Shown here: piece after piece, positions 29,116 through 29,670 of the stretch
How the letters are laid out: every line of letters starts with the position of its first letter
Numbering within the stretch: the first letter of the stretch is position 1
Origin: a virus
Virus record (IMG/VR): IMGVR_UViG_3300037245_003482
Location: 1-64,000 of that record
DNA length: 64,000 bases
Direction: 5' to 3' (one strand)
Translations under genes and position numbers: made by a program
The notes under the pieces: generated by a model
What the model was told of the DNA's origin: nothing
What the model saw: the letters and a program-made list of their open reading frames with translations, nothing else
Database searches by the model: none

Positions 29116-29670
29116 GTGAGTGGCAGAAGTAATTACCTGCACACAAAACACTCGCTCTTTTGGTAATGGGAGGGGGGGCAACCCCCCTAATCTTTCCTAA
29201 TGAGGGCGGGCGACCCATTATCATAAAATTGGAAAACCCCATTTTTATGTGTTGAATAAACTTTGTACGCTCTACATATACGCCCATTAGAAACTGGGGC
29301 CCTTAATACCAGTTTTAACCGTTCTGCAACCCCTGATGGCAACTGAAAGGGGCTCGAAATGCCTTACGTGCGTCCTTTTGTATTATGCATTTGAAACAAG
29401 GGCCCAGGCGGAGCAGGGTATGAACCAGGCCGTCGAAACTCGAGGGGCAGCCCTGGGACCCACATTGCTGGGGAAAATGTATCAAACGCGCGCTGTCCCA
29501 ACAAATGACACCTGTACAATGGGCAACCATTGACTAGGCTATATTGTAGGTTGTGAAGTCAGTAAAGAGGGCCACAGTGCAAGCAAATGCACTAATCGAT
29601 ATAGAGCATCCAATAGAATACACTAAAAGTGGGACCTAGGCGTACAGTCTAGGAAAACTCCGCCAAATTC
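29116..29670 (+). ncRNA. Large highly structured non-coding RNA candidate
   Basis: 700-bp gap with no credible gene, at least 10 stems, two GCAA tetraloops, long-range GGCGGAG/CTCCGCC pairing. Confidence 0.6.

Follow-up and report, generated by a model that had tools for sequence, protein, structure and literature searches.

A candidate family of large, densely folded RNAs between the sigma factor and primase operons of uncultivated phages

Introduction

What does a phage keep in a 702-bp stretch of its genome that holds no credible gene? The question is raised by positions 29080-29781 of a 64,000-nt stretch of viral DNA (hereafter the window), which forms the first 64 kb of the 74,014-bp IMG/VR virus record IMGVR_UViG_3300037245_003482 (CheckV completeness 88%). 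This gap runs from the stop codon of an open reading frame (ORF) at 28531-29079, in an operon with a phage sigma factor, to the ATG of an ORF at 29782-29994, in an operon with a DnaG-like primase. A preliminary description of this DNA had found the gap, put at about 700 bp, to be packed with potential stems and had offered two explanations: a new class of large non-coding RNA (ncRNA), or a structured primer or origin RNA for the replication genes beside it.

Comparison with related phages reveals a fold of ~550 nt that is conserved, strand-specific and covarying, and at the 5' end of which stands a promoter-like site. A functional RNA at ~29116-29665 on the + strand is very probably real; that it is a gene for a ~550-nt, multi-domain folded ncRNA of an uncatalogued family, acting in trans, is a joint claim to which we give a probability of roughly 0.6. 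A new large ncRNA class is thereby the best reading, and a supported one, for a family with three known members and predicted transcription; the primer or origin RNA is kept as its main rival. Of the outcomes that would have told against a new class, those accessible from sequence (a strong Rfam match, folding no better than shuffles, homologues lacking compensatory change) all fell in its favour.

A gene-free gap with a strand-specific fold

Only short ORFs occur in the gap and none is conserved on either strand: those of 65 amino acids (aa; + strand) and 71 aa (- strand) have no counterpart in the two homologues described below, contigs L002 and L003. Coding under genetic code table 4, or with TAG read as glutamine, was rejected, there being no ORF in the gap under these codes either; an ORF conserved among homologues, which would place the gap among protein-coding genes, was not found under the standard or the alternative codes.

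Folding of the gap distinguishes its strands. The + strand of 29100-29690 has a predicted energy of -183 kcal/mol (z -3.07), equalled by none of 100 dinucleotide shuffles, as against z -0.82 for the - strand, which 17 of 100 shuffles equalled. Values for the + and - strands of the two homologues, L002 and L003, are -2.56 vs -1.22 and -4.91 vs -0.75, such that the + strand folds better than its shuffles in all three phages and the - strand does not. The + strand is taken as the RNA strand because the conserved helices hold G-U pairs, which would be A.C mismatches on the opposite strand; the preliminary description had leaned the same way on the strength of such pairs and of GNRA loops. GC content is 0.54 at 29300-29600 vs ~0.38 in the flanks.

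Homologues and conservation

Homologues were sought through an alignment of primase relatives, which gave 42 IMG/VR loci, and by nhmmer with the gap as query. Counterparts were found at just two of these loci, L002 and L003 (Table 1). The gene order common to all three phages is sigma gene, 182-aa gene (absent in L003), RNA, 70-aa gene, primase and SNF2 helicase, the RNA's upstream neighbour being the 182-aa gene in the window and L002 and the sigma gene in L003. Across both cores of the RNA (29277-29609), DNA identity to L002 is 77% over 337 nt, and the first 82 nt of the core are 82% identical to L003. The best protein genes reach 75% identity to L002 and 67-73% to L003 (SNF2: 75% and 67%); DNA conservation of the RNA core equals or exceeds that of the best protein genes.

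No further member was recovered from GenBank phages by 'distant' blastn, from 40 more distant primase-bearing IMG/VR loci by nhmmer or the covariance model R1, or from the complete records of five relatives. Alignment of the sigma factor returned the same two contigs only, that of the 182-aa neighbour returned no contig, and in motif scans of viral, metagenome and genome contigs the matches listed were the same two contigs or chance matches, the latter rejected by nhmmer or R1. The 17-mer GGCAACTGAAATGGGCT is useless as a search key: it was listed for more than 100 viral contigs of ~20-50 kb that are unrelated to one another (L044-L123 among them; many from isolate genomes), where it falls in a conserved gene and in a single conserved context that has no relation to the RNA. 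In the collections searched, the RNA family is confined to a small clade of uncultivated ~70-kb phages.

Covariation and architecture

All comparative structure derives from three sequences (the window, L002 and L003), two of them fairly close. Structures were predicted from the same alignments used for the pair counts; the controls were pairing partners slid by 1-3 columns and 500 shuffles, and regions beyond the MAFFT alignment were checked for pairing directly, sequence by sequence. The main weight is therefore laid on the slid-partner controls and on helices that persist with unrelated sequences.

RNAalifold, given the three full-length sequences, proposes 119 consensus pairs, 37 of them with compensation. 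About 12 helices are retained via compensatory changes, with both sides altered in 18 of the 74 aligned core pairs against 0-2 for slid partners, and four additional helices keep their pairing with entirely different sequences. The 5' core alignment (29278-29446) has 39 pairs, in which 94% of cells pair and of which 8 have changed on both sides; slid partners give 0-1, and 3 of 500 shuffles reach 8. The 3' core alignment (29502-29667, 3' hairpin included; 35 pairs, 93% paired) has 10 such pairs, compared with 0-2, and no shuffle out of 500 matches the observed result by any measure. Compensatory change is thus found both in the core alignments and by direct pairing checks, and pairing is maintained in all three phages despite partly or wholly different sequence in H1, the D2 outer helix, the closing helix of the variable arm, the hairpin at 29517-29532, and D10.

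The first domain illustrates the pattern. The outer helix of H1 reads GAGUG/CACUC, UAGGCG/CGCCUA and UAAGC/GCUUA in the three sequences and the inner helix GCAG/CUGC, GUUGG/CCAAC and GUCGG/CCGGC, with all pairs formed in each; the stem GTGAGTG/CACTCGC with GCAG/CTGC inside it, picked out in the preliminary description, is fully compensated in both homologues. The next proposed element, TGGTAATGGG/CCCATTATCA around a G-rich hairpin with a GCAA loop, is likewise present as D2, both of its helices being kept with other sequences: the outer helix forms 10/10, 9/10 and 11/11 pairs from unrelated sequences, and the hairpin is compensated in L003 (GGGGUG/CACCCC). This G-rich hairpin scores terminator-like and is probably structural, a reading that rests on the conserved helix enclosing it. 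The linker that follows aligns weakly, and no common structure was established there among the three sequences.

Within the 5' core, the hairpin at 29291-29315 is invariant, with 7-8 bp and an 11-nt loop; it is followed by a helix (29319-29368) that bears CCCC-UGAUG-GCAA-CUGAAA-GGGG, a hairpin in which G.A pairs stand in tandem, and then by helix 29369-29406 and helix GGCGG/CCGUC (29407-29434). The variable arm is closed at the same position by 8, 8 and 7 bp of unrelated sequence in the three phages. The 8-bp helix of the 3' core encloses the helix 29549-29552/29570-29573, whose loop of 15 nt is nearly invariant, and the hairpin 29578-29592. Two longer-range candidates have thin support: GCCNA (29282-29286)/UNGGC (29535-29539), which is perfect in L003 and, by eye, in L002 and has a C.A mismatch in the window, and GUUUUA (29312-29317)/UGAAGU (29554-29559).

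Most of the remaining stems listed beforehand survive comparison: AAACTGG/CCAGTTT is invariant, CCCCT/AGGGG and CAATGG-GCAA-CCATTG covary, and CCTAGGC/GTCTAGG is kept. CATAAAA/TTTTATG can be found in the window itself. In L002 the stem GTGCA/TGCAC is replaced by GTGGT/ACCAC, and in L003 it is cut short; GGGAC/GTCCC lies in the variable arm, of which the closing helix is kept with unrelated sequences. Two others have to be given up: CCAGG/CCTGG with TCGA/TCGA inside is not conserved and conflicts with the covarying GGCGG/CCGTC helix, and the long-range pairing GGCGGAG/CTCCGCC, said to close a 250-nt domain, has a nearly invariant 5' side with CTATACC or CTATGCT opposite it in the homologues.

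Table 1. Predicted features of the RNA locus and its counterparts (window coordinates unless a contig is named).
Feature	Position	Strand	Remarks
Promoter-like site GTAACA-17-TATACT	29083-29111	+	consensus match; ends 5-7 nt before H1
H1, 5'-terminal hairpin with A-rich internal loop	29116-29155	+	outer helix 29118-29122/29149-29153, inner helix 29123-29126/29137-29140
D2	29161-29223	+	10-bp outer helix 29161-29170/29214-29223 around G-rich hairpin 29171-29188 plus another small hairpin
Poorly conserved linker	29224-29276	+	window hairpin CATAAAAT/ATTTTTATG (29222-29249)
5' core	29277-29446	+	hairpins/helices 29291-29315, 29319-29368, 29369-29406, 29407-29434; model R1
Variable arm	29444-29499	+	closed by 29444-29451/29492-29499; direct pairing check
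3' core	29509-29604	+	GCAA-capped hairpin 29517-29532; 8-bp helix 29539-29546/29597-29604
D10, 3' hairpin CCUAGGC/GUCUAGG	29635-29653	+	pairs 7/7, 8/8, 8/9
AT-rich spacer	29666-29756	+	CCTATGTT x3 at 29691-29715 (TRF score 34); window-specific G-tract 29726-29739
TATAATAGGG, recurrent phage promoter-like motif	29757-29766	+	ahead of 70-aa gene and primase operon; marks unit boundary
L002 counterpart	~4826-5385		67.9-kb contig; nhmmer E 2e-59
L003 counterpart	~4459-5005		68.0-kb contig; nhmmer E 8e-24

Limits of the transcription unit

The TATACT that had been remarked upstream of the structured region lies at 29106-29111 and has GTAACA 17 nt upstream, and it is from this promoter-like site that transcription would start. 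L003 has an equivalent site, TTGCTA-18-TATAAT at 4425-4454, with 10 of 12 consensus matches and at the same distance from H1; in L002 a weaker -10-like TATATT can be seen by eye, the promoter scan having listed no site there. The site at the 5' end of the RNA is unlike AACTTnnTATAATAGGG, the motif that recurs in this phage. The recurrent motif, TATAATAGGG, has 11 exact copies in the window, at 26407, 29757, 42041, 45280, 47326, 49532, 50389, 51370, 54088 and 54655 on the + strand and 16793 on the - strand, and 25 matches with at most one mismatch vs 8.8 expected. It usually follows AACTT plus 2 nt and stands directly upstream of operon starts and other non-coding stretches; the sigma operon (26407) and the operon of the 70-aa gene and primase (29757) are both preceded by it. 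The motif, which lacks a clear -35, probably represents the main class of promoter in this phage.

The 3' end of the RNA is estimated to lie at ~29665, probably soon after the last conserved hairpin, and no intrinsic terminator was found 3' of the RNA in the window, L002 or L003. AT-rich tandem direct repeats stand within ~15-35 nt of the last hairpin in each of the three phages, with different sequences at the same place: those of the window are listed in Table 1, L002 has a 16-mer repeated 2.1 times, and L003 has a 15-mer repeated 4.6 times at 5016-5084 (score 124). In L003, a homing endonuclease encoded by a free-standing gene at 5090-5665 (phrog_314, E 1.5e-20; no Pfam match) comes between the repeats and the promoter of the next operon; the window and L002 lack this insertion. 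The repeats have thus remained beside the RNA, which indicates that the RNA does not serve the replication operon as a leader.

Comparison with known RNA families

Rfam 15 (4227 models) was searched by cmscan at gathering thresholds across the 64 kb, and at E ≤ 10 with permissive filters over both strands of 28900-29900. Its models presumably include ROOL, GOLLD, OLE, HEARO, 6S, RNase P, tmRNA, group I and II introns and pRNA. No family was found in the gap at either level, in keeping with the earlier failure to match the element to a known family, and ARAGORN found no tRNA or tmRNA there. The sole Rfam match in the 64 kb, and the only tRNA of the window, is at 50610-50684 on the + strand (44 bits), to which ARAGORN ascribes an 8-nt anticodon loop with a four-base 'tata' anticodon; the gene may resemble tRNA-Ile(UAU) or decode quadruplets. 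A group I or II intron was rejected: both flanking ORFs are complete, the upstream gene differs among the phages and no intron model matches.

A screen of IMG/VR for structured RNAs listed 10,006 unnamed candidates and required at least three matching regions for each (Fremin et al. 2023; PMC10690425). The RNA studied here may be among these candidates.

Amongst named RNAs, ROOL and GOLLD offer the nearest comparison: they are large (~500-800 nt), multi-domain and borne by phages or prophages, have many conserved helices, are independent genes rather than leaders and, as with the RNA studied here, have no known biochemical function. However, their covariance models do not match at E ≤ 10, and their members number hundreds as against three here. 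ROOL and GOLLD typically lie near tRNA genes or within prophage tRNA clusters, whereas the nearest tRNA to this RNA is 21 kb away and its neighbours are a sigma factor and a primase operon; the likeness does not go beyond size and host type. Homo-oligomeric assembly has been described for ROOL, GOLLD and OLE (PMC12286853). No conserved palindromic loop was seen in the RNA studied here, the GGGCCC of a window loop not being kept in L002. With OLE, which is ~600 nt long, the RNA shares its size class, a complex fold and highly conserved unpaired nucleotides, and OLE is a ribonucleoprotein scaffold, the type of role proposed below; again there is no model match at E ≤ 10. OLE is chromosomal, belongs to anaerobic Firmicutes and has dedicated partner genes, of which no equivalent was identified here. 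The pRNA of phi29 is likewise a phage-encoded structural RNA, acting in trans within a machine, but it is ~170 nt long, lies at the genome end, serves packaging and has no model match here at E ≤ 10.

Genome setting

The - strand carries the genes of the window between ~7.5 and 26.2 kb, and the + strand those beyond 26.4 kb. The upstream operon includes the sigma factor (27844-28521; Sigma70_r2, E 7.5e-9) and the 182-aa ORF, and the downstream operon the 70-aa ORF, the primase (30688-31590) and the SNF2 helicase (32360-34123). Between the 70-aa gene and the primase (29994-30688), the window has further ORFs of 86 and 156 aa for which tblastn found no match in L002, L003 or L004; in these three contigs the distance from the 70-aa gene to the primase is just ~100-280 nt. 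Neither these two ORFs nor those of 182 and 70 aa match any family in Pfam or PHROGs, and a protein atlas queried with the 70-aa protein yielded no usable result. The phage's DNA polymerase finds its best matches among proteins annotated as family A/Pol I, with at most 24% identity to any cultured-phage protein.

Gaps without ORFs near primase genes are found in more distant relatives as well. In L004, whose primase is 40% identical, the 534 nt immediately before the primase (5365-5898) form such a gap, and either strand of it is predicted to fold well beyond its shuffles (z -4.2 for + and -3.3 for -). Neither a similarity to the RNA of the window nor a relative at the other fetched loci was detected for this gap. 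We take it as a lead, a sign that a link to replication deserves testing, and not as evidence for such a link. Unusually good folds are also predicted for gaps in L007 (4828-5154; GC 0.15; z -6.8 and -4.5) and L008 (3011-3412; z -4.4 and -3.4), and several further gaps of this kind fold in no unusual manner.

Possible roles of the RNA

How might such an RNA work? We propose that the RNA has a sigma-70-type promoter of its own, the site that stops 5-7 nt short of the 5' hairpin, and that read-through from the upstream sigma operon reaches it too. It would be an independent early transcript of a host-type RNA polymerase rather than the leader of the next operon, which appears to have its own promoter. 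As a folded RNA it would act in trans, whether as a scaffold that binds proteins, by self-assembly or as a catalyst, after the manner of other large 'ornate' RNAs; the argument for a role in trans is drawn from size, conservation and analogy. The probable sites of contact would be three near-invariant unpaired stretches: 29298-29308, a loop of 11 nt; 29330-29352, the GCAA hairpin with its tandem G.A pairs; and 29553-29569, a loop of 15 nt.

Several points weigh against this proposal. There are just three sequences, two fairly close, with structures drawn from the alignments that also supplied the pair counts. The 3' end is an estimate, none of the three phages having a terminator, and transcription itself is a prediction from the sequence. 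The trans role is suggested by analogy, and the AT-rich repeats 3' of the RNA, together with the neighbouring replication genes, would fit a role linked to an origin equally well.

Such a role, although unlikely on balance, is the alternative that survives best. The transcript would extend into the AT-rich, iteron-like segment, hybridise there persistently and prime leading-strand synthesis by the phage's family-A polymerase, in the way of ColE1 RNA II or the T4 oriF and oriG transcripts, and its fold would control formation of the hybrid, just as folding matters for the function of RNA II. The systems are alike in having a promoter-driven transcript of ~550 nt (promoter and transcript being predicted here) without a terminator, AT-rich repeats and adjoining replication functions: the operon of the primase and SNF2 helicase comes directly after the RNA, no terminator follows the RNA, its size is near the 555 nt of RNA II, the repeats stand close to the last hairpin in each homologue (in L003 beside the RNA and apart from the operon promoter), and the phage polymerase best matches family A/Pol I, at no more than 24% identity. 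However, there is no sequence relation to ColE1 or T4 and no antisense unit like RNA I was seen; the window repeats are short and weak and differ in sequence among the phages, and the window's G-tract is not conserved. The origin transcripts and R-loop primers of T4 and T7 are not known to have elaborate or conserved folds, and ~340 nt conserved at or above the level of protein genes seems more than priming needs. The minimum of cumulative GC skew, at ~26 kb, falls at the strand switch and not at the RNA; it says little about an origin, because it tracks gene orientation.

Somewhat less probable again is an element acting in cis, either as a long 3' untranslated region of the sigma operon or as a read-through, antitermination or processing element coupling early transcription to the replication operon. 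The RNA is on the same strand as both operons, begins 36 nt after the upstream stop codon and has no terminator before or after it; in addition, the endonuclease gene of L003 lacks an evident promoter of its own and so probably depends on read-through from the RNA. Yet both the RNA and the downstream operon have promoter-like sites of their own, the neighbours vary on the downstream side as they do on the upstream side (182-aa gene or sigma gene), and a complex conserved fold of 550 nt far exceeds known antitermination and stabiliser elements.

That there is no functional RNA at all, and the gap is instead a conserved DNA element (a binding, recombination or packaging site) or a chance structure in a GC-rich patch, is very improbable: the three sequences are few and the RNA is a prediction from sequence, but conservation of DNA sequence cannot explain helices kept with unrelated sequences, and compensatory changes and strand-specific stability also speak against it.

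Conclusions

An independent, trans-acting ncRNA of an uncatalogued family is accordingly our preferred reading of this locus. The stronger form of that claim, that the RNA is a new class ranking with ROOL, GOLLD and OLE, with an activity of its own (as a ribozyme, a self-assembling particle or a ribonucleoprotein core) and early expression from a host-type promoter beside sigma and replication genes, is put forward tentatively, at somewhat under even odds. The phage lineage has no cultured relatives, and a family of three metagenomic genomes limits the statistics that can be brought to bear. Nevertheless, very few bacterial or phage RNAs longer than ~400 nt with conserved complex folds are known, and nearly all of those that are understood are ribozymes or ribonucleoprotein cores; recent structures of ROOL, GOLLD and OLE have reportedly shown unexpected RNA-only assemblies. 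Another large class with a conserved complex fold, if borne out, would offer a new target for work on structure and function, and its position, with a phage sigma factor on one side and replication genes on the other, suggests that it could bring to light a step dependent on RNA in takeover by the phage or in the initiation of replication.
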